From the sequence record ON286975: a stretch of 64,000 bases of DNA. One strand, 5' to 3'. Below are positions 1,795 through 59,018 of this stretch, in pieces. Both the position numbers and the translations under genes were made by a program. The notes under the pieces were generated by a model. That model worked only from the letters and a program-made list of their open reading frames with translations, did no database searches and was not told the origin of the DNA. How positions within the stretch are numbered: the stretch's first letter is position 1; the number at the start of each line of letters is the position of its first letter. Source of the stretch: Escherichia phage I29.

Positions 1795-2778
1795 ATGATG
1801 ACAAAGTTAACTCTTGAGCAAATTTTAACACTAAAGCAACAGGGATACACTAATAGACAAATTGCTCGTGAATTTTTAGGCCGTGAGTCACGTGAGAGCT
1901 GGATCCGACTACAGCTTAAACGTGCACAAGAGAATATGTCAGAGATTGTAGGAGAAGCAACGGAGCGCTTCCTTGAAGAGCACAAAGGCGCTAAAGTTTG
2001 GGTGTATGATACAGAGACATCCCCAACAAACGGCTGGTTCTTTGGGCACTATAAGACCAACATTCAAACCTGTGGTATTGAAGTTATGCCTTATATGCTA
2101 ACTTTCGCAGGTAAGTGGTTAGACAGCCCTAGTGTGGTTGACTGCGCTCTTCCCGATTACAAAATGTGGGATGAGGATATTCACAATGATCTCGAATTGA
2201 TTCAGGATTTGTGGTATTATCTGGATAAATGCGATGTCGCAGTAGCCCACAATTCAGGTTTTGACTGCGGGTGGGCCAACCAACGATTTGCATTTCACGG
2301 GTTGCCTCCAACAAGCCCCTACAAAGAGGTTGACACCCTTAAAATGATCAAGAAGGCATTCCGTTTGAATGCAAACACTTTGGAGTATGCATGCAAATAC
2401 TTCCAACTGGCCAGACAGAAACTGATTGATCACACATTTGAAATGTGGATCAAGTGTGTCCATGGCGATCTTGAGGCATTTAAACAGATGCGGGAGTATA
2501 ATGTTGGTGATATCCTGTCTCTGGAAGGACTGTATTTGCTGGCTCGCCCGTTTGCTAAGCAGCACCCAAACATGTCATTGTACTACCAGGACGAGGAGCC
2601 AAAGGTTCGTTGCCCACGCTGTGGTGGAGAACACCTTCACGAGGAAGAAGCTTTGGCATATACTCAGCTGAGTGCATTTAAAACATACCGCTGCGAAGGT
2701 TGTGGATCTGTTGTTCGTGACCGTAACAACATCCGTACCAGAGAAGAAATGAAAAACACCCTGATTCAGATAATCTAA
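1795..2778 (+). CDS. DnaQ-like DEDDh 3'-5' exonuclease with N-terminal HTH and C-terminal zinc ribbon
   Basis: Exo I YDTET, Exo III AHNSGFD (Hx4D); N-terminal NRQIAREF HTH-like; CPRCGG...CEGCG. Confidence 0.6.
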   Translation: MMTKLTLEQILTLKQQGYTNRQIAREFLGRESRESWIRLQLKRAQENMSEIVGEATERFLEEHKGAKVWVYDTETSPTNGWFFGHYKTNIQTCGIEVMPYMLTFAGKWLDSPSVVDCALPDYKMWDEDIHNDLELIQDLWYYLDKCDVAVAHNSGFDCGWANQRFAFHGLPPTSPYKEVDTLKMIKKAFRLNANTLEYACKYFQLARQKLIDHTFEMWIKCVHGDLEAFKQMREYNVGDILSLEGLYLLARPFAKQHPNMSLYYQDEEPKVRCPRCGGEHLHEEEALAYTQLSAFKTYRCEGCGSVVRDRNNIRTREEMKNTLIQII

Positions 2779-2786
2779 CAATTATA

Positions 2787-2808
2787 GGGAGGCTTGCGCC
2801 TCCCTTTT
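2787..2808 (+). terminator. intrinsic terminator hairpin
   Basis: gggaggc-ttgc-gcctccc followed by TTTT. Confidence 0.5.
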
Positions 2809-2823
2809 CCTTTTGGAGGCACT

Positions 2824-3642
2824 TTGAGCAAGAAAGAGTCCAACGACAAATATTACACAAACCCTGAGTATGCAGAATATCTTGTTGGTAAAGTAAAAGA
2901 TAAGTATGGAAATTGTGCATACGTTGAGCCTTCTGCTGGAAGAGGTTCTTTTTCAAAACTATTTTCAGAGATACTGTCGTACGATTTAGTACCAGATCCT
3001 GAATTTGAAGGGCCAACACCGTGCATTCAGGCAAACTTCTTGGAGGTGCACCCCAAGGCAGATGTCTTCATAGGTAACCCACCATTTGGCAAGAATTCAT
3101 CTTTAGCTTGCAAATTCTTCAACCATTGTGCATCATTGCTAGAGCTTGGAGGGGCCATAGCCTTCATCTTGCCACGGACATTTGAAAAAATATTTTTTGC
3201 AAACAAATTGGACATGTCGATGCACCTTGTCTACAGCGAAAGGTGCCCTAAGAATTCGTTTTTACTTAATGGCAAACCTTATGACGTGCCGTGTGTTTTC
3301 CAAATTTGGGAGAAAAAGGCGTGTAATAGGGATCCTGTAGAGATTGGAGAGAATAAGTTATTTTCTTTTAGCACTCCAGATGACTACGACTTCTGTGTAA
3401 GACGTGTTGGGTATAATGCTGGAAAAGTATTGGGGGATGATGACCCAAAATCTGAAGAATCGACATATTTCATAAAATCTTTAGTTGACGGTGTTGACAG
3501 AGTGTTTTCTGAATGCTATTCTTCTTTTCAAGAAGAAGCAGGTAAGACTGCCGGAATGAAGAGTATAGGCAAGAAAGAACTACAATACATTTTGGAGACC
3601 AGGTATGATCAAAAGCATAGACTTGACCAAAGAACTCACTGA
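2824..3642 (+). CDS. DNA N6-adenine methyltransferase
   Basis: Motif I EPSAGRGSF, motif IV NPPFG, YYT N-terminal motif; start placed at in-frame TTG after terminator hairpin and GGAGG (track ORF begins 2794). Confidence 0.65.
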   Translation: MSKKESNDKYYTNPEYAEYLVGKVKDKYGNCAYVEPSAGRGSFSKLFSEILSYDLVPDPEFEGPTPCIQANFLEVHPKADVFIGNPPFGKNSSLACKFFNHCASLLELGGAIAFILPRTFEKIFFANKLDMSMHLVYSERCPKNSFLLNGKPYDVPCVFQIWEKKACNRDPVEIGENKLFSFSTPDDYDFCVRRVGYNAGKVLGDDDPKSEESTYFIKSLVDGVDRVFSECYSSFQEEAGKTAGMKSIGKKELQYILETRYDQKHRLDQRTH

Positions 3643-30850: not shown

Positions 30851-31990
30851 CATACTCTACCTGTCTGATCAATTTCCCCAACCACATCCTCCATATTTTC
30901 CCTGTCTGTACTACCCCTGCCCCGCCGTGAGTCCCGTCATATCTGGCTTTCCAGCAAATATCACACCCACAAATATCATTGCCTGAAGAGGGTTTCATCT
31001 CATAATATATGCCTTACCTGAAGAGCGCTTCATACACCACGTAATTTTTTTTTTAATTGACCCCCTCCCCGCCGCTGGAGAGGTTGGCTTTTCCCACACA
31101 GACCTGAAGAGTCAGCCAGAAATATCTGAACAGGCCCAATTCTACCACGATTTTGACCTGACCTACAGGAGTGCTGCCAGGCGGACGAAATGGGAATCAT
31201 TCTCATTCTTATAACAATTCTCAAATATCGAGGCAGTGAGGCAAATTAATAGGTGAGGCCGTTCACACAATGGCACAACATTTGCAACCTATCTTGTGGG
31301 AGTGAATGAGAATACCTATCATTGTGAGAATAGTTATCATTACGGGCAATTTAACATAATACCCATTATGCGCACCGCTGGTGATACATACAGGGAAAAT
31401 ATGGAGGATGTGGTTGGGGAAATTGATCAGACAGGTAGAGTATGCATACTCTACCTGTCTGATCAATTTCCCCAACCACATCCTCCATATTTTCCCTGTC
31501 TGTACTACCCCTGCCCCGCCGTGAGTCCCGTCATATCTGGCTTTCCAGCAAATATCACACCCACAAATATCATTGCCTGAAGAGGGTTTCATCTCATAAT
31601 ATATGCCTTACCTGAAGAGCGCTTCATACACCACGTAATTTTTTTTTTAATTGACCCCCTCCCCGCCGCTGGAGAGGTTGGCTTTTCCCACACAGACCTG
31701 AAGAGTCAGCCAGAAATATCTGAACAGGCCCAATTCTACCACGATTTTGACCTGACCTACAGGAGTGCTGCCAGGCGGACGAAATGGGAATCATTCTCAT
31801 TCTTATAACAATTCTCAAATATCGAGGCAGTGAGGCAAATTAATAGGTGAGGCCGTTCACACAATGGCACAACATTTGCAACCTATCTTGTGGGAGTGAA
31901 TGAGAATACCTATCATTGTGAGAATAGTTATCATTACGGGCAATTTAACATAATACCCATTATGCGCACCGCTGGTGATACATACAGGGA
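30851..31990. repeat. tandem direct repeat, 594-bp unit x 1.9 copies
   Basis: 30851-31444 is repeated at 31445-31990 with identical sequence where compared; unit contains three CCTGAAGAG motifs and a T10 run. Confidence 0.9.
31393..31496. repeat. perfect 104-bp palindrome at the tandem-repeat junction
   Basis: gggaaaatatggaggatgtggttggggaaattgatcagacaggtagagtatg is immediately followed by its exact reverse complement. Confidence 0.9.
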
Positions 31991-52931: not shown

Positions 52932-53212
52932 TGATCAGTCTCCTTCTTGTTAAGTCTGAATACTGCAATAATAGCATTCCCAAGGTGCAGTGTCAAATCA
53001 TTTCCAAGATACCACAGCATTCCACGGTCATCTTTGATGAAAGGGTGACAATCTGGTGCCTTCCAGACATTGTACACTTTCCCAACCTGAAAGAAATCAG
53101 GCCCTGTTGGGATTTTAGTGCCTGGCCACACTTGAGATACCTGAACACACTCCACCTGCATAATAACAGGGATAGTCATGGATGTAAATGTTTTTGTTGG
53201 TTCTACTACCAT
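52928..53212 (-). CDS. hypothetical protein (WF-family paralogue)
   Basis: Start MVVEPTK after AAAGAGGAG; RGMLWYLGNDLTLHLG. Confidence 0.45.
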   Translation of the reverse strand: MVVEPTKTFTSMTIPVIMQVECVQVSQVWPGTKIPTGPDFFQVGKVYNVWKAPDCHPFIKDDRGMLWYLGNDLTLHLGNAIIAVFRLNKKETDQ

Positions 53213-53261
53213 AAAAGTCTCCTCTTTGCTCAACAACACTTCCATGTGTTGATAGTTTACA

Positions 53262-53615
53262 TTAGTGACAATCACCCCAATTACGACCACACAGGTATTC
53301 ACCTGTGATCTGGAACGGGACGCCCATCATTTTAGAAGCTTGCCAGAAGCAATGCACCACCATTTCACCCACAGGGCTCCAGATAAGTTCAAGCTTTCCG
53401 TCATCGTTCAGGATAGGATCGTACACCGTGTTTCCGTCTCTGTCAACCACTTCGTTTCCGTCCTCATCCTTGCGTGCCTTTTTGTACTTATGACCGTCGA
53501 ACACATGAAGTTTGGCCTCCTGCTCTGCCTTAAATGCTTCCAGTTCTTCGATTGTGTCGAAGGTGTACACAGTCTTATACTTAGGCGTGTCAGGGACCTG
53601 AAGTTGGTACTCATC
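53262..53615 (-). CDS. DNA polymerase (family A), exon 2
   Basis: Begins DEYQLQV (motif C Asp/Glu) and ends ...GRNWGDCH, cf. Pol I ...GENWDQAH and T7 ...GPNWAICH; in frame with exon 1 after removal of 53616-54457. Confidence 0.75.
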   Translation of the reverse strand, partial: DEYQLQVPDTPKYKTVYTFDTIEELEAFKAEQEAKLHVFDGHKYKKARKDEDGNEVVDRDGNTVYDPILNDDGKLELIWSPVGEMVVHCFWQASKMMGVPFQITGEYLCGRNWGDCH

Positions 53616-54457
53616 CAATAGTTCAGGTAGGTCGTTAAGCTACCCCGCACCATTACGTGCACAGCCATACGGTTTCCTGTATGGATCGGACTATCTCATT
53701 ACCTTGTTACCAAGGCACCTCTCATTTCGACCGCACTTGCTGGCCTACTCTACTCGCTTCTTCACACCAAACTATGTTGGAGCTATGCTTTCGATAGTCT
53801 CTGAACGTTACTACCAGGTGTAGTTTTTAGAGATATGTTTCCACTGTCTTCTTTGCTTTATGGCTCTGACCGTCTCATAAGGATACCCAAGATCCCTAAT
53901 CTCGCATTGTCGTAGACCACTCTGCAACAGTTCGCAAATCTCCGTTACCTCATCCTCGGTCAGCACAGCGTTGGCATTATACTCACCGACTGGCCTTACT
54001 CTGAGTTCATTATCGTAGGCGTGTTTGATATTTCCACCAGGGGTAGTCCATTCCAGGTTCCAGTGTGCATTGTTGTACTTATTTCCATCCTTATGGTTCA
54101 CCCATGTGAGCTTTTCAGGATCAGGGTTCGGTACAAAGCATTCAGCAACCAAGTGGTGGACACCTTTTGTGCACTGCTTCCCCTCGATGAGCATGGTTAC
54201 GCAAAGGTAACCTCTACCATTATCAAAACAAAACATTGTTGTATGATCACGTTTCGATAAAGGTATTGTTCCATCATCAAACACGGTATACCCGTGATAA
54301 TCAGCTGATCTAGCCATTTTAACTACACCCCTTTAGTCTTCGCTGCGGATTAGCATATTGAGCTTTTACCATGTTCAGGTGTAAAAGTCAACTTAGCCTT
54401 CCCGTCAATTAAAGAGGTTTTCGACGTGCATCACTGCACGAAGCCACAATGTTATTT
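53616..54457 (-). mobile_element. group I intron (842 nt) with HNH homing endonuclease ORF
   Basis: Conserved P (aattgacgggaagg), Q (aatccgcagc), R (gttcagagacta), S (gagatagtcc) elements; IGS 5'-CAUUGUGG-3' pairs with exon 1 end CCAU (U-G at splice site) and exon 2 start GAUG; intron ends in G. Confidence 0.8.
53811..54317 (-). CDS. HNH homing endonuclease (I-HmuI-like), intron-encoded
   Basis: GVHHLVAECF...VNHKDGNKYNNAHWNLEWTT matches VHRLVA...DHKDGNKDNN..NLRWVT; C-terminal HTH-like LTEDEVTEICELLQSG...WKHI; closed by stem gtgtagtt/aactacac. Confidence 0.8.
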   Translation of the reverse strand: MARSADYHGYTVFDDGTIPLSKRDHTTMFCFDNGRGYLCVTMLIEGKQCTKGVHHLVAECFVPNPDPEKLTWVNHKDGNKYNNAHWNLEWTTPGGNIKHAYDNELRVRPVGEYNANAVLTEDEVTEICELLQSGLRQCEIRDLGYPYETVRAIKQRRQWKHISKNYTW

Positions 54458-56881
54458 ATGGTAATAGATAATACGACGAACACCTTCATCGTACCACCCA
54501 CGCTTCACCATTTGATGGTGCATGAGTATCCCAACTAAGTCACACAACGATGCGCCGCCATTTTGTTGGTATGCATTAAGTAAAGAGTGTTTAGATCGGG
54601 TCCAGATAGCATGACCATCAAAAGAGTAGATAAACTTCTTACCCGTTGCTTCCCAGAATTTCTCCAGATCTTCTTTACGCCCCTTAAGACCAGGGTTGGC
54701 ATCCCAGAGTGCATCGATTACCCTTTGTCCCAACTCTGGAGAGATGTCCAGCATATCTGCAACTTTATCTTTTTGTGCCCCATACATAACCCCATACGTG
54801 ATAGGTTTACCGTCGTTACGAGACACCTCTCTACCTGCTACTTTTGTATATGCCTCAGCATTGTTTTGGTGTGCGTCCCCGTTACTTACAACATCGTAAT
54901 ACAGGCCGTTGTCGAACTCAAAGGCACCCCAAGCCCCGATAAGCTGCTCTAAGTTGGACCCGTCAATACCGATCTCAAAGTATCCTGGAGGAACACCCCA
55001 CAGACTGCGCATCTCTTTACCCATAACCACTTTAGGAGATGGTTTAGGCATGTTTGCACAAATACTGTGTTTCTGTCGGGAAGTGTTTGTTAATCCAGAA
55101 CTTTTAGCAGGAAGCTTATGGTCAATCTTCAAACGTGGGTGATTAAGAAGACCAGTATCAACCTTATCCTCCTTGATTGGATCAAGGACCGATCTGCGGT
55201 TTCGCAATGATAACCACAAGACGATATCTTTAGCCATCTCTCCGTTCAATTTTTCAAGATTCGGGCATAGGTGTCCAAACGTATCTTTCAGTTGCGGAGA
55301 AGTAATAAGTGCCCTAGCTTTTCTACGTATTTTCCCGAATACTTCCTTTTTAATCCTTTCGGAGTTAGGAAAGCTTCGGAACTTGTGCACGGTTGTCTGA
55401 AACTTAGCATCAGTTTTGTTCCAGAAGTTGATAATCAGGTCACAATACTCTGACTCTAAAAGCTCGTCCATGTATGCATATACTCGTGCATCAACATCTG
55501 CATCAGGTAGAGCTTTCTTCTTGCTGTCTTTAGTTACATCCTTAGTTCTCCACATTGTCGGAAGCCAACCAGCACTGATCAGGTATCGCTTAATGTCGTC
55601 CTGATTGCTGATTTTCATAGGTATCTTGCAGTCCGGCATTCGCTTCTGCTGTAGATCACTTATTGCCTGATCCATCAGCTCTTTAGGTAAAGGTTGTGGT
55701 GTGGAAGTGCCCTTAATATAGCCTCTCAAGAAATCAGCCATCTTATCAGGGTCTTTGCAGCCCATCTCTTCACACCATTTTATCCCCATCTTGCTGACAT
55801 CTCCTGTGGAGGTAAATGCTCGCTTAGGCGGGGCTTTGAACTCCAAAGCACTCATGTCCACAGGATAGCCAAGCTTATCTTTTAACCATTTCCAACCATT
55901 GTTGGAGATTGTCCCATCTTGGTTAAACGGCTTTTCAGGGAACTTGGGCCGCTGAGACATTGACAGCTCTTTTAAAGGAAGTTGAGGTTCAACACGATCA
56001 GCGATTTCTTTCATCCACGCATCGCAACGGTCACGTAAAGCAATAGCTCCATCTATGTCGAAGTATACACCCTGACGGGCCTGCAGCTCCATCAGGAAGT
56101 GCTGCAGCATGCCTCGGCGTAATGCGTTCTTCCAGGTGATTTTCTTGAACCCTTTCGGCTTCTCTTTGGCTGGATCGTACATAAAGTTCTGCATGTCAGA
56201 TTTGCCGTAGAATACACCTTTTGATTCCGCTACCAGCTCTTTCCAGAGCAGCTCCTGGATGATAACGTCCTCGAATACACGATCCACATACTTCCACAAC
56301 GGAAGATCGCGCCAGTCATCAATTTGAACTTTCTGGTTACCAAGGGCGTAGCCCCATGCCATAAGGCCGTGAGGACCAACAGGCTGCATTTTCTTAGTAA
56401 CCGGGTTGAATACAGAGTCCGGACAACCTTTTGGTAAAGGGCGATCAGGCCACAAGATTCTGCTCATCGCCAACGTATCAAACAGGTTAACCTGGTGGTC
56501 GTTGATAGTCCCCATGCATTTAGGATCACGGAACATATCAAAATGAATACCGGATAATCTTTCCATCAGCATAAAGTCATAACTGTAGCAGTTATGGCAG
56601 TTCAAAGCTGTTGGTGACCAGTCGGAATTGCCTGTAAGCCAACCTTCCAACTCCGAAAAATCTGCTATGCGAACTTCAAAATCTTTATGAAGAGTTTTCT
56701 TTGCCAGAATAAAGTTCTTAGCCTTCTCTATATCCTCTTCGGAGTAGTGTGTGCGGTCATTTAGAGGAAGGAACAGCATAAAACGGTTCTTATTCAGCTC
56801 TTTAAACAGGCCGCAGTGATAATAAAGATCTGGATCTTCCAGCAAACCGGATGACTCAAAGTCGAACGACCACATGCTCAT
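54458..56881 (-). CDS. DNA polymerase (family A) with 3'-5' exonuclease, exon 1
   Basis: Exo I FDFESSG; motif A DGSNLEQLIGAW; motif B KPITYGVMYGAQ; ends ...GWYDEGVRRIIYYH just before motif C; AAGGAG RBS. Confidence 0.85.
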
Positions 56882-56939
56882 ATACAGTTCTCCTTAAAGG
56901 GGAGGCGGTTGTACTACCCCTCCCACTCTTTGTTAAACA

Positions 56940-59018
56940 TTAAAAAGGTGTTTCATCATCCTCAAAACCAGGGACCGGATCAGAGGATGGATCATCGTAT
57001 TGGAGGTCTTCCTGCGTGTCAATAGGCTTGACAGTGGGTGTTACAACCTTATCAGCCACAACCTTGCCCATAGGTGTTTCTACAACTGCATGCTCCTGAT
57101 CCTCAAACATAGCCTGAGGTCTCCAAACAACCTCCCCACCTTCTCCGTCTGTAAACATCTGCATTTCTTTGTCCCAGTACCAATTACTGGCATCATGGAA
57201 CTTACCTGTATGCGGATCCATAACTAAAGTGTCAGCAATACCTAAAGTTTTTGCTGGACGGTTTTTAAGACCTACCAGACGGACACGTCCACGAGAACGA
57301 TCCACCATTTCTTCGGCCTCGACACCTATGACTACCCAACTCAACTGTTCAAGCCCAGCCGATCCTCGCAAATTCTCTTTTCGCACAGGATACCAGAAAG
57401 GTAATGGGTTACCATCCTTGTCCTTAGGGGGCACAATCTCTGTACGTTTGAGGTGAGCGATCACCAAGATAAACACGTTAAACTGCTTACAAAACGCAGC
57501 CAGTTGGGTCATAGCCATGTCCAGTTCTTTTCGCTCATCCTTAACATTAAGCCCTGAAATTACCATGGACAGGTGATCCAGCACAATATAACGACAATGG
57601 TACAGGCAAACCATTTGCTTAAGCTTGGTAATCAACTCGTCCACTGGAATAGACCCGAAATGTTTGAACACTTTGATTTTTCCAGCTTTTGCCCATGATT
57701 GGTGAATCTCTGCGTGTTCTTGATCAGTTAAAAACTGGCTAGGATCTTCAACAAACTCTTTAACATCAAACCCTAACTGGTTTGCATACAAGGAGTTAAT
57801 TGCTTCCTCTGGGTCCTCCTCAAGATGAATCATGCATAGACGATCATCCTCTTCATAGTCATCGGCCTTCGGGCATGTCGGGTCCATTAGGTATCTTGCA
57901 ATACAGTGTTCCAGTTTTTTAGCCACGGTTGTTTTACCGCCGCCTGATGGACCTGTAAGCATTACAAGTGTCCCTTTGTGCAAGCCTTTTAGCATTTTTT
58001 GCAGTTTTGGGAACTCTGCACTGATATCTACCCCGTTGGAAGTCTTTTTCCGCAAAGACTCGATAGAGAAGTCTTCTAAATCCGACACAGCATCAGGCAC
58101 ATATTTAACAGGGTGCCGGAACATGTTGACAATATCTTCCAGCTTTTTAGCCTTCAGCATGTCTCGGATATCTTTTACACCGTCAGGGTCATTTACTTCA
58201 CCAGGGTATTCTACGTGGTAAACGTTATCAGCCATCAAAAATGCTGCGATATTGTGCGTGGCCTCAACACCTTTAATGACGTGTTTTTGCTTCTCTACCT
58301 CGTTAGCTGCATCGTTATCCATTGCCAGCACAACTGTTCCATAGCTACGGATAAACTTCTCATTGTTTGCAAAAGTATCTACTGCGTTTGCACATCCACA
58401 GTTAATTCCAACAAAAGGCAGGCAGGGTTTTCCTGCCAGATCACCACCGTTGATAACTGCGTCGATCCCGTCCTGGACCTCTTTAGCCCACTGCTTCACC
58501 TTTGCCGGGGCTTTAGCGTTGGTGAGAATCCCTTTTACTTGTATCTGATATGCAGCCTGCCATGCTGCAATAACATCACCTTCTCCCTCACAAACGTTAA
58601 TCTGCTTACGGTTGTTGGAAGATGCACACAGCTTTTGACCAAACATCTGGGAGTTGGCCTTTACGATGCCAACAACGGAGAAATGGCCCCTTTGCTCTTT
58701 AGGAATAGTCCAGTCACGCTTTTTGAAACCAGACAGATTTCCGTAGCGGTCGTAATATGGGAAATATGTTGCAGTGACTGTCACACCGTCTTCTTGGGAC
58801 AATGCTGATCGCACACCAAAATATTGTGCAGCCATCAGACCGATATTTTGTTGTGGGACAGGGACAATTTTAGTATTTTCTAAAACAGTCTCTACAGTTT
58901 CAACTTCTTTTTCATCACGATAGTCTCGTTTCACACTTCCCCCACTTTTATACTTAGTTGCTTTCGGGTTTGGCTCACCGAAACGGTTGTATGCAGATGC
59001 CATAAATTTACTTCCCAT
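56940..59018 (-). CDS. primase-helicase (TOPRIM primase + DnaB-like helicase)
   Basis: TOPRIM VCEGEGD...MDNDAANE; helicase Walker A GPSGGGKTT; AAGGAG RBS; no N-terminal zinc finger seen. Confidence 0.8.
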   Translation of the reverse strand: MGSKFMASAYNRFGEPNPKATKYKSGGSVKRDYRDEKEVETVETVLENTKIVPVPQQNIGLMAAQYFGVRSALSQEDGVTVTATYFPYYDRYGNLSGFKKRDWTIPKEQRGHFSVVGIVKANSQMFGQKLCASSNNRKQINVCEGEGDVIAAWQAAYQIQVKGILTNAKAPAKVKQWAKEVQDGIDAVINGGDLAGKPCLPFVGINCGCANAVDTFANNEKFIRSYGTVVLAMDNDAANEVEKQKHVIKGVEATHNIAAFLMADNVYHVEYPGEVNDPDGVKDIRDMLKAKKLEDIVNMFRHPVKYVPDAVSDLEDFSIESLRKKTSNGVDISAEFPKLQKMLKGLHKGTLVMLTGPSGGGKTTVAKKLEHCIARYLMDPTCPKADDYEEDDRLCMIHLEEDPEEAINSLYANQLGFDVKEFVEDPSQFLTDQEHAEIHQSWAKAGKIKVFKHFGSIPVDELITKLKQMVCLYHCRYIVLDHLSMVISGLNVKDERKELDMAMTQLAAFCKQFNVFILVIAHLKRTEIVPPKDKDGNPLPFWYPVRKENLRGSAGLEQLSWVVIGVEAEEMVDRSRGRVRLVGLKNRPAKTLGIADTLVMDPHTGKFHDASNWYWDKEMQMFTDGEGGEVVWRPQAMFEDQEHAVVETPMGKVVADKVVTPTVKPIDTQEDLQYDDPSSDPVPGFEDDETPF

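Follow-up and report, generated by a model that had tools for sequence, protein, structure and literature searches.

We suggest that the DNA polymerase gene of Escherichia phage I29, a Vequintavirus (rV5-like coliphage), is interrupted by an 842-nt mobile group I intron with an HNH endonuclease gene, inserted between the His and the Asp-Glu of catalytic motif C. We consider this reading very probable (about 93%) and infer splicing in I29 itself from its sequence and from that of its relatives. The intron is already known, being annotated in sister phage genomes, and the class of elements to which it belongs is well known.

According to this interpretation, the polymerase gene would be transcribed as a single pre-mRNA, whose 842-nt insertion would fold as a group I ribozyme (P1-P9.2, with a P3/P7 pseudoknot and the IA2-typical P7.1/P7.2) and excise itself through the usual two-step reaction initiated by guanosine. 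The 5' splice site would be the U.G pair formed between the exon-1 end ...CCAU and GUGG of the guide, and the 3' site would follow the terminal G at 53616. Ligation of the exons would produce an mRNA encoding a family-A polymerase of 925 aa, with the His-Asp-Glu of motif C restored over the junction, and unspliced RNA would give a protein without the motif C carboxylates.

Polymerase exons and their junction

The window, i.e. the whole 64,000-nt stretch of I29 DNA that was analysed, carries all the features described below on its minus strand. An earlier note on this DNA had reported three ORFs, and all of them were found where it had placed them, with lengths of 809, 168 and 118 aa. The 809-aa ORF (54452-56881) terminates with ...RRIIYYHK and a stop codon, as the reading of exon 1 without splicing is CAU AAA UAA, with the stop two codons inside the intron. 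The 118-aa ORF (53262-53618) starts with TTG and ends with ...GRNWGDCH. Joining T54458 to G53615, as the note had proposed, removes 842 nt, is in frame and gives a 925-aa product reading ...RRIIYYH/DEYQLQVPD (slashes mark junctions). Exon 1 (54458-56881) then comprises 808 codons, the last of which complete ...YYH, and exon 2 (53262-53615) comprises 117 codons and a stop, running from DEYQ, with the Asp-Glu of motif C, to GRNWGDCH. The predicted junction is ...UACCAU/GAUGAG in the spliced RNA (...UAUUACCAU/GAUGAGUACC in the DNA), and the predicted tryptic peptide that spans it is IIYYHDEYQLQVPDTPK.

The boundary 54458/53615 is not a guess, since it is fixed independently by alignment with the intronless relative DrSchubert. 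The single 2,778-nt polymerase CDS of this phage corresponds to the exons of the window as nt 1-2424 plus 2425-2778, and in I29 these two parts are separated by exactly 842 nt. The predicted 325-aa spliced C-terminus is 100% identical to the DrSchubert protein, where it is a single piece, and it is likewise colinear with the unsplit polymerases of Proteus phage Mydo (63%), Vibrio phage ICP1 (45%) and Pseudomonas phages (~30%). In Murica, the site is likewise empty and the flanks are identical to those of the window, the start of exon 2 reading GAT GAG TAC CAA; in empty alleles of the DrSchubert type it reads GAC GAA TAT CAG. A correlation at this position, GAT (favourable to P10) with the intron and GAC without it, initially held 12:2 but was ruled out, as at least five empty alleles, Murica among them, agree with the spliced junction of the window at 89/90 positions.

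The spliced product is a family-A polymerase by its Pfam score, its motif C and its C-terminal tail. T7 DNA polymerase (gp5) aligns with it (E 1.4e-13) across the junction, at H653/D654, pairing yyHDEyql of the spliced product with wvHDEiqv of T7, and direct alignment with the gp5 C-terminus matches the tail GRNWGDCH with GPNWAICH (NWxxCH). This bears out the view of the earlier note that exon 2 supplies both motif C and the C-terminal tail. The Pfam profile DNA_pol_A (PF00476; cutoff 34.3) is matched by the spliced C-terminus with a score of 34.8, as far as position 349/381, whereas exon 1 by itself obtains 27.9 and stays under the cutoff. Exon 2 matches the 'DNA polymerase' family phrog_8888 (1.3e-58); neither the whole of it nor its last 50-68 aa, searched alone, gave a polymerase match in PDB or Pfam. 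A promoter/terminator scan gave no signal above chance.

The note had also predicted that ORF-by-ORF annotation would miss the complete enzyme, and indeed the rV5 reference, APECc02 and many other records list a truncated polymerase together with a small 'DNA polymerase' or hypothetical ORF; the rV5 reference paper likewise lists a truncated polymerase. Such records, in which the 809-aa and 118-aa ORFs returned by ORF callers are often annotated separately, would suit a different scenario, in which a homing endonuclease gene split the polymerase without being spliced, and two separately translated polypeptides reassemble. Reassembly of this kind has reportedly been seen with NrdA/mobE of Aeromonas phage Aeh1. 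It has been suggested for CB7_245 as well, and the paper on Pectobacterium phage CB7 describes one HNH-containing insertion without splicing (PMC7344957). We nevertheless regard such a split gene as very unlikely in I29. It would part the His from the Asp-Glu inside motif C, and the TTG 'start' of exon 2 is made up of the three nucleotides that close the intron and is not preceded by anything resembling a Shine-Dalgarno sequence. Moreover, splicing of the homologous CB7 intron (intron 2), which occupies the same site, was demonstrated by RT-PCR and Sanger sequencing (PMC7344957). The structure of the inserted RNA, considered next, weighs against it too.

Structure and covariation of the ribozyme

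The putative intron (53616-54457) is IA2-like, begins with A54457 and ends with G53616 (omega-G). P1 and the internal guide occupy 54444-54461, where exon CCAU and intron AA pair with UUGUGG; the six pairs are invariant in 12 sequences. The guide, CAUUGUGG at 54451-54444, provides GUGG for the pairing with the exon-1 end CCAU, and its CAUU (54451-54448) is able to pair with the exon-2 start GAUG (P10), so that both pairings proposed in the earlier note can be formed. The wobble pair U54458.G of P1 sits at the 5' splice site and, together with the terminal G53616, gives this intron the predicted splice-site signature of its class.

The classical P, Q, R and S elements named in the note are also present, embedded in the following helices. 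P2 (54425-54440) is the hairpin CGUGCA-GUGA-UGCACG, changed on both sides in 5/6 pairs across lineages. The 5' strand of P3, CCUCUU (54412-54417), pairs with GAGAGG (53718-53723) and includes two compensatory pairs. J3/4 and the 5' strand of P4 (54399-54410) form the P element, AAUUGACGGGAA, and the 3' strand of P4 followed by P6 (54342-54351) the Q element, AAUCCGCAGC. Between them lies the P5a/P5b extension (54358-54391), whose helices were assigned by hand and in which the P5 base has non-canonical pairs. The P6a stem, recovered by a mini-hairpin fold, is made of ACUAAAGGGGUGUAG (54323-54337) and CUACACCUGGUAGU (53810-53823), the latter overlapping the final codons and the stop of the endonuclease ORF. 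J6/7 and the 5' strand of P7 (53795-53806) constitute the R element, GUUCAGAGACUA, with a compensatory UA to CG change in the rV5-type copy, and J8/7 with the 3' strand of P7 (53688-53697) the S element, GAGAUAGUCC. P8 (53700-53717) is changed on both sides in 5/7 pairs. The hairpins P9, P9.1 and P9.2 (53665-53684, 53646-53661 and 53626-53644, respectively) stand upstream of the 3' splice site, and compensatory changes were found in P9 and P9.2.

According to PMC3428280, IA2 introns have P7.1 and P7.2 between P7 and the 3' strand of P3, linked by G-U-A. The window intron has this arrangement, in helices assigned by hand rather than by a formal classifier: the P7.1 extension hairpin (53764-53783), with a U-U in most long-form copies, and the P7.2 hairpin GGCC...GGUC (53729-53745), with GUA immediately 5' of it. 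The short rV5-type and CB7 copies show exactly the order P7.1-GUA-P7.2.

The group I fold anticipated in the note was recovered by a local scan with Rfam model RF00028, which matched the window copy over the full model (1-253) with 41.1 bits (E 9e-9) and a 510-nt insertion in P6. The curated gathering score of this model is 50 bits, and a default scan at that threshold misses ORF-bearing copies, that of the window among them. Copies at the same site that lack the ORF score 75.6, 72.5 and 64.7 bits, and that of 18-1-2 reaches 91.2, each of these values exceeding the cutoff. As the shortfall of the window copy coincides with the insertion, we attribute it to the 510-nt ORF in P6.

The low score might otherwise indicate a relic defective in splicing, i.e. 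a polymerase pseudogene in I29, or an assembly artefact. Besides the ORF insertion that accounts for the deficit, this is contradicted by the core helices of the window copy, which are all intact, with no copy-specific loss of core pairings seen. The 842-nt sequence is, furthermore, identical in APECc02 and nearly identical in at least 12 plaque-forming phages that were isolated independently. We thus find a relic or artefact scarcely credible.

The core helices P3-P8, including the P3/P7 pseudoknot, are backed by covariation. Pairs are formed in 98.4% of cells over 12 sequences from four lineages, against 36-41% for slid partners, and none of 500 shuffles reached the observed score; since the sequences are related, the percentage and the shuffle count are inflated, and slid partners provide the fairer control. 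Changes on both sides of a pair affect 23/76 pairs (1-2 for slid partners) and were seen in P2, P3, P5a, P6, P7, P7.1, P7.2, P8, P9 and P9.2, in a structure built from the same 12 sequences, aligned once the ORFs and the P5 extension of CB7 had been cut out in silico. Apart from this intron, the window showed neither a further copy of the core nor any additional group I match.

A complete, covarying group I core around the ORF argues against an insertion that does not splice. The same core persists, above the Rfam threshold, in copies devoid of the ORF, and would be needless for a free-standing endonuclease gene.

The endonuclease gene and the mobility of the intron

The 168-aa ORF (53811-54317) is located in the P6a loop. 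Its only significant match among solved structures is 1u3e (I-HmuI; E 2.8e-5), residues 34-100 aligning with I-HmuI 36-100, including the ...HKDGNK.NN...NL.W core. Its best PHROG family, phrog_59 (8e-38), contains the I-HmuI-type intron endonucleases from polymerase genes of Bacillus phages. The I-HmuI-like HNH endonuclease of the earlier note is therefore upheld, and the protein has a predicted HNH / His-Me finger motif. An NCBIfam search yielded no useful name. The 5' strand of P6a overlaps a purine-rich putative ribosome-binding site of this ORF, and the stem may sequester that site and so regulate the ORF.

If it behaves like the phage intron endonucleases that have been characterised, the I-HmuI-type protein would act on relatives infecting the same cell, cutting or nicking their polymerase alleles close to the insertion site, and recombinational repair would then copy the intron into the cut allele (homing).

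It is also conceivable, if rather unlikely, that the ribozyme is real while its endonuclease ORF is a passenger in decay, with the intron either lost or passed on only vertically, without active homing. In a spread sample of 60 records, the site was empty in 30 and contained 276 nt in 13, ~328 nt in three and 842/843 nt in 13; the intron is thus absent from half of the sampled genomes, and copies without the ORF are as frequent as those with it, which would fit such decay. The Pfam HNH_3 score of the ORF (19.8, under the cutoff of 24.8) points in the same direction, although the HNH core can be aligned to I-HmuI. On the other hand, the ORF is full length in 6/6 sequence variants, and synonymous codon differences outnumber non-synonymous ones (16:6, 10:5, 11:7, 8:5 and 13:7). 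In addition, the presence and absence of the intron are scattered among genomes with 92-99% flank identity, which, together with flank-identical empty alleles such as Murica, implies recent gain or loss. We therefore continue to favour a mobile intron.

Relatives of the intron and its significance

The closest annotated counterparts are found in the BASEL collection. The records of HeinrichReichert (MZ501073) and AlexBoehm (MZ501048) present the polymerase CDS as a join of two segments and, nested within it, a 'putative homing endonuclease', and that of MaxTheCat (MZ501094) contains an ORF-less form of the same intron. The BASEL copies agree with the window in gene, site and 3,620-nt span, and their intron is ~96-98% identical to that of the window. 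The BASEL paper set the intron boundaries by comparative genomics; our literature search found no description of the RNA structure of this intron or of a splicing experiment on it, and no RNA data for any Vequintavirus, including I29.

Intron 2 of CB7 (Certrevirus, Vequintavirinae) has the same RRIIYYH/DEYQ boundary as the window and a homologous ribozyme, sharing the guide, P7, the P7.2 loop and P9.x, with ~63-76% identity by segment. Its endonuclease is different (HNH CB7_50, 127 aa), and the ORF extends from the P5 region through the 3' strand of P4 and P6. CB7 carries a second intron, at TYG/IMYGAQ, which the window lacks.

A similar insertion is known outside the subfamily. Bonocora & Shub (2004) reportedly described group IA2 introns of the T7-like coliphages phiI and W31 (AY769989 and AY769990), encoding the HNH endonuclease I-TslI. 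We take H881-D882-E883 of E. coli Pol I to be the His/Asp-Glu boundary of motif C, equivalent to H653/D654 of T7. PMC3428280 places the phiI/W31 introns, described as IA2 with an HNH ORF in P6a, at Pol I 'site 881', which, by its position, is evidently the insertion boundary found in the window. The host phages of these introns belong to the Autographiviridae, unlike I29, and no T7-like phage was among the close matches to the window intron or its endonuclease. Weak 3'-end matches in ~43-kb phages were considered as introns of the phiI/W31 type and rejected, as they represent a different group I intron, at polymerase site TGRLSASNP/NMQQLP.

The Bacillus phages SPO1, SP82 and Bastille (I-HmuI, I-HmuII and I-BasI) likewise carry, within the gene of a family-A polymerase, a group I intron that encodes a nicking endonuclease of the HNH type. 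I-HmuI shares phrog_59 with the window ORF and is its nearest solved structure. However, these phages infect Gram-positive hosts, their endonucleases resemble the window ORF with low identity in the HNH core (residues 34-100) only, and, according to PMC3428280, their introns lie elsewhere, at site 674 near TGRLSS...PNLQNIP.

The His/Asp-Glu site of motif C is apparently occupied in three or more genera of Vequintavirinae, and homologous ribozymes of different genera bear unrelated HNH ORFs at differing peripheral positions. Within the genus Vequintavirus, the 276-nt rV5-type intron and the FFH2-type are 98% identical at the 5' end and 90% at the 3' end, whereas their cores share 63% identity with 85 gap columns, being as divergent as the intron of CB7, a member of another genus. 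We tentatively propose, with somewhat more doubt than confidence, that the ribozyme core, the intron termini and the endonuclease gene are separately exchangeable modules at one polymerase site.

The chief value of these results lies in annotation quality, as the gene encodes, in our reading, a single 925-aa enzyme and not a 'truncated polymerase plus orphan protein', while split or spurious ORFs persist in many public Vequintavirus records, among them that of the rV5 type genome. The intron would constitute a further instance of a well-understood class, the HNH-bearing mobile group I introns in conserved catalytic motifs of phage replication genes. If the modular interpretation is true, it would imply that intron lineages have recombined repeatedly at one fixed homing site, and ORF-less introns might be mobilised in trans by the endonucleases of co-infecting relatives. 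Such a system could serve for studies of the cycle of intron and endonuclease gain and loss in many cultured coliphages.

A polymerase gene interrupted at motif C

Megablast with the polymerase region (53200-57000) retrieved 122 phage records, with identity of up to 98.6%, nearly all of them from Escherichia phages in the rV5-like myovirus genus Vequintavirus; a primase/helicase gene adjoins the locus in the window. Sixteen records labelled 'Campylobacter phage' (MG0656xx: C12, A147, C9, others) are 87-98% identical to the window's polymerase region. They are placed under Vequintavirus, some are flagged UNVERIFIED, and their host label is likely wrong.

Three ORFs of the minus strand lie where an earlier note had placed them: a polymerase ORF of 809 aa (54452-56881, C-terminus RRIIYYHK*), an endonuclease ORF of 168 aa (53811-54317) and a downstream ORF of 118 aa (53262-53618, C-terminus GRNWGDCH*). 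Joining T54458 to G53615, as was proposed there, is in frame, removes 842 nt and gives a 925-aa product reading ...RRIIYYH|DEYQLQVPD. In unspliced RNA the exon-1 frame reads CAU AAA UAA, i.e. a stop two codons inside the insert, and the TTG with which the 118-aa ORF seems to start consists of the final three bases of the insert.

The splice junction is fixed by natural intronless alleles. The polymerase of the related phage DrSchubert is a single CDS of 2,778 nt, of which nt 1-2424 align by blastn to exon 1 (54458-56881) and nt 2425-2778 to exon 2 (53262-53615), with exactly 842 nt between them; the site is empty in Murica as well, and the Murica flanks have the same sequence as the window exons around the junction. 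When the C-terminal 325 aa expected of the polymerase after splicing were used as a tblastn query, DrSchubert matched at 100% identity as one unbroken 975-nt piece, and distant polymerases, i.e. those of Proteus phage Mydo (63% identity), Vibrio phage ICP1 (45%) and Pseudomonas phages (~30%), were colinear across the junction to the final residue, also in one piece.

The family-A polymerase is complete only after the exons are joined. The Pfam DNA_pol_A profile (cutoff 34.3 bits) scored 27.9 bits with exon 1 alone versus 34.8 bits with the spliced C-terminus, reaching profile position 349 of 381, and T7 DNA polymerase structures match the spliced product (E 1.4e-13). Motif C indeed runs across the junction (yyHDEyql versus wvHDEiqv of T7), which falls between T7 H653 and D654, and the expected C-terminal tail is present, GRNWGDCH aligning with T7 GPNWAICH. 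T7 D654 is the counterpart of E. coli Pol I D882, the catalytic aspartate of motif C. Between motif C and the tail, the polymerases of the window, Pectobacterium phage CB7 and Avunavirus phage 18-1-2 carry extra residues (~73 in the window).

The group I intron and its HNH endonuclease ORF

At the Rfam curated threshold no match was reported in the window. With permissive filters, the group I intron model RF00028 (cutoff 50 bits) matched the insert (53616-54457, minus strand) over its full length (model 1-253) at 41.1 bits, with an E-value of 9e-9 when the local stretch was scanned and of 5e-7 in a scan of the whole window; the alignment contains a 510-nt insertion within P6. The low score is probably due to this ORF insertion, since ORF-less relatives, namely the 328-329-nt copies of JLBYU08, HMD-6 and JEP1 and the 276-nt form of rV5/MaxTheCat, clear the cutoff with 72.5, 75.6 and 64.7 bits. 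Together with covarying helices, these matches bear out the proposal that the insert is a group I intron.

Helices P1, P2, P3, P4, P5a/b, P6, P7, P7.1, P7.2, P8, P9, P9.1 and P9.2 were assigned manually, the Rfam alignment and the sequence serving as guides. Covariation was assessed in 12 distinct sequences of four lineages (window-type, rV5-type, Avunavirus 18-1-2 and Certrevirus CB7), from which ORFs and the CB7 P5 extension had been excised in silico. Standard pairs occupied 98.4% of the cells, versus 36-41% when the 3' partners were slid by 1-3 columns, and 23 of 76 pairs had changed on both sides, versus 1-2 in the slid controls; the observed covariation score was reached by none of 500 shuffles. 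These values refer to a structure derived from the same, mutually related sequences, with CB7 P4 one column off in the MAFFT alignment. The pseudoknotted core shows compensatory changes (P3, CG to UA and UA to CG; P7, UA to CG), as do five of six P2 pairs and five of seven P8 pairs. P7.1 and P7.2 with a GUA linker fit the criterion for subgroup IA2 (PMC3428280). The guide sequence CAUUGUGG, noticed earlier, is present at 54451-54444: its GUGG pairs with the exon-1 end CCAU, placing U.G at the splice site, and a P10 pairing is possible between its CAUU and GAUG at the start of exon 2. The last intron nucleotide is G.

The 168-aa protein had been called I-HmuI-like, and its sole significant match among solved structures is I-HmuI (1u3e, E 2.8e-5, HNH core). 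Among PHROG families it matches phrog_59 'HNH endonuclease' best (8e-38), a family that includes I-HmuI-type endonucleases from Bacillus phage polymerase introns (PMC11878797); the Pfam HNH_3 match was sub-threshold. The ORF is full length in all six sequence variants, with more synonymous than non-synonymous codon differences, and the protein is presumably active as a homing endonuclease. The ORF occupies the terminal loop of P6a, whose closing stem GGUGUAG/CUACACC overlaps the purine-rich stretch 5' of the AUG with one strand and the last codons with the other, an arrangement by which the stem might control endonuclease translation.

Intron polymorphism and other insertions in related phages

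Of 60 records sampled across 116 Vequintavirus matches, 30 had an empty site, 13 (the type phage V5/rV5 among them) an insert of 276 nt, three one of ~328 nt and 13 one of 842/843 nt; the remaining record was partial/unclassed. The flanking exons of these classes share 92-100% identity, and a mix of filled and empty sites scattered in this way over near-identical genomes is typical of mobile-intron gain and loss. The rV5-type intron is a mosaic, with 98% and 90% identity to the FFH2-type at the two ends and only 63% in the core.

Other insertions were observed in relatives. An in-frame polymerase insertion of ~323 aa (JEP1 2632-3629; also EPFV3, NHEP1 and Mangalyan), absent from the window, lies at ~nt 2013-2041 of the intronless CDS and results in ORFs of 1,132-1,248 aa. 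Its N-terminus weakly matched a Hint domain (E 8e-5, below cutoff), and it is probably an intein; it co-occurs with the motif C intron in some relatives and stands without it in others. In CB7 and 18-1-2 a further group I intron (47.0 and 47.5 bits, slightly below the Rfam cutoff) sits at TYG|IMYGAQ in motif B, a second site, which is empty in the window (~codon 697/698, near 54790). FFH2 has a free-standing HNH endonuclease ORF of 244 aa (620-1354), absent from the window, that is inserted directly 5' of the polymerase gene and overlaps the start of that gene; a similar arrangement, CB7_54, is reported as non-spliced (PMC7344957). Salmonella phage S.Kent 1-2-1 (~43 kb) has a group I intron (1846-2532, RF00028 51 bits) at another polymerase site, TGRLSASNP|NMQQLP, in the region of SPO1/Pf-WMP3 'site 674-676'. 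This intron encodes a different ORF, of 180 aa, and its 3' end resembles P8-P9.2 of the window intron (~77%).

Part of the intron core (51 nt, P4'-P6-J6/7) has 94% identical copies elsewhere in other Vequintavirus genomes, one of them under the terminase large subunit gene (e.g. JohannBauhin 1241-1292), a gene for which introns were reported in rV5 (rV5 genome paper); no second copy was found in the window. At 31380-31509 the window contains a 130-bp palindrome (65-nt arms, zero spacer, 95% complementary, the central ~104 nt perfect), matched by miRNA-hairpin models on both strands. Its position is kept in ~120 Vequintavirus records, mostly without annotation and with a variable middle, and one might guess at an origin or other DNA-level signal.

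Relation to known introns

The earlier observation is confirmed, and the interpretation given with it is supported: the window contains a textbook case of a mobile group I intron that carries an HNH homing endonuclease. The insertion site had been known before. T7-like phages phiI and W31 carry IA2 introns with HNH ORFs in P6a at Pol I 'site 881' (PMC3428280). Pol I motif C is H881-D882-E883, and 'site 881' is evidently the same boundary as that of the window intron. The CB7 polymerase gene, from the same subfamily as the window phage, contains two HNH-bearing introns, whose splicing was demonstrated by RT-PCR and Sanger sequencing (PMC7344957). The second shares the window's boundary (RRIIYYH|DEYQLEV) and has a homologous ribozyme, but a different, differently placed 127-aa HNH ORF; splicing has been shown only in this homologue and would extend to the window intron by analogy. 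An ORF-less homologue occupies the site in 18-1-2 (RF00028 91.2 bits), and SSE121, phiTE, A5-4 and phages of Klebsiella and Cronobacter have related introns in their polymerase genes.

The element is also already annotated in sister genomes. In the BASEL collection, where intron boundaries were set through comparative genomics, the polymerases of HeinrichReichert, AlexBoehm and MaxTheCat are deposited as two-piece joins, with the endonuclease nested in the join in the first two; the HeinrichReichert join covers 3,620 nt, the same span as in the window. According to the rV5 genome paper, the polymerase has 775 aa and the terminase alone contains introns; the rV5 record lists spurious ORFs within the 276-nt intron. 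The practical value of the finding is a correction of annotation, and the empty, ORF-less and ORF-bearing alleles of the genus form a convenient natural series.
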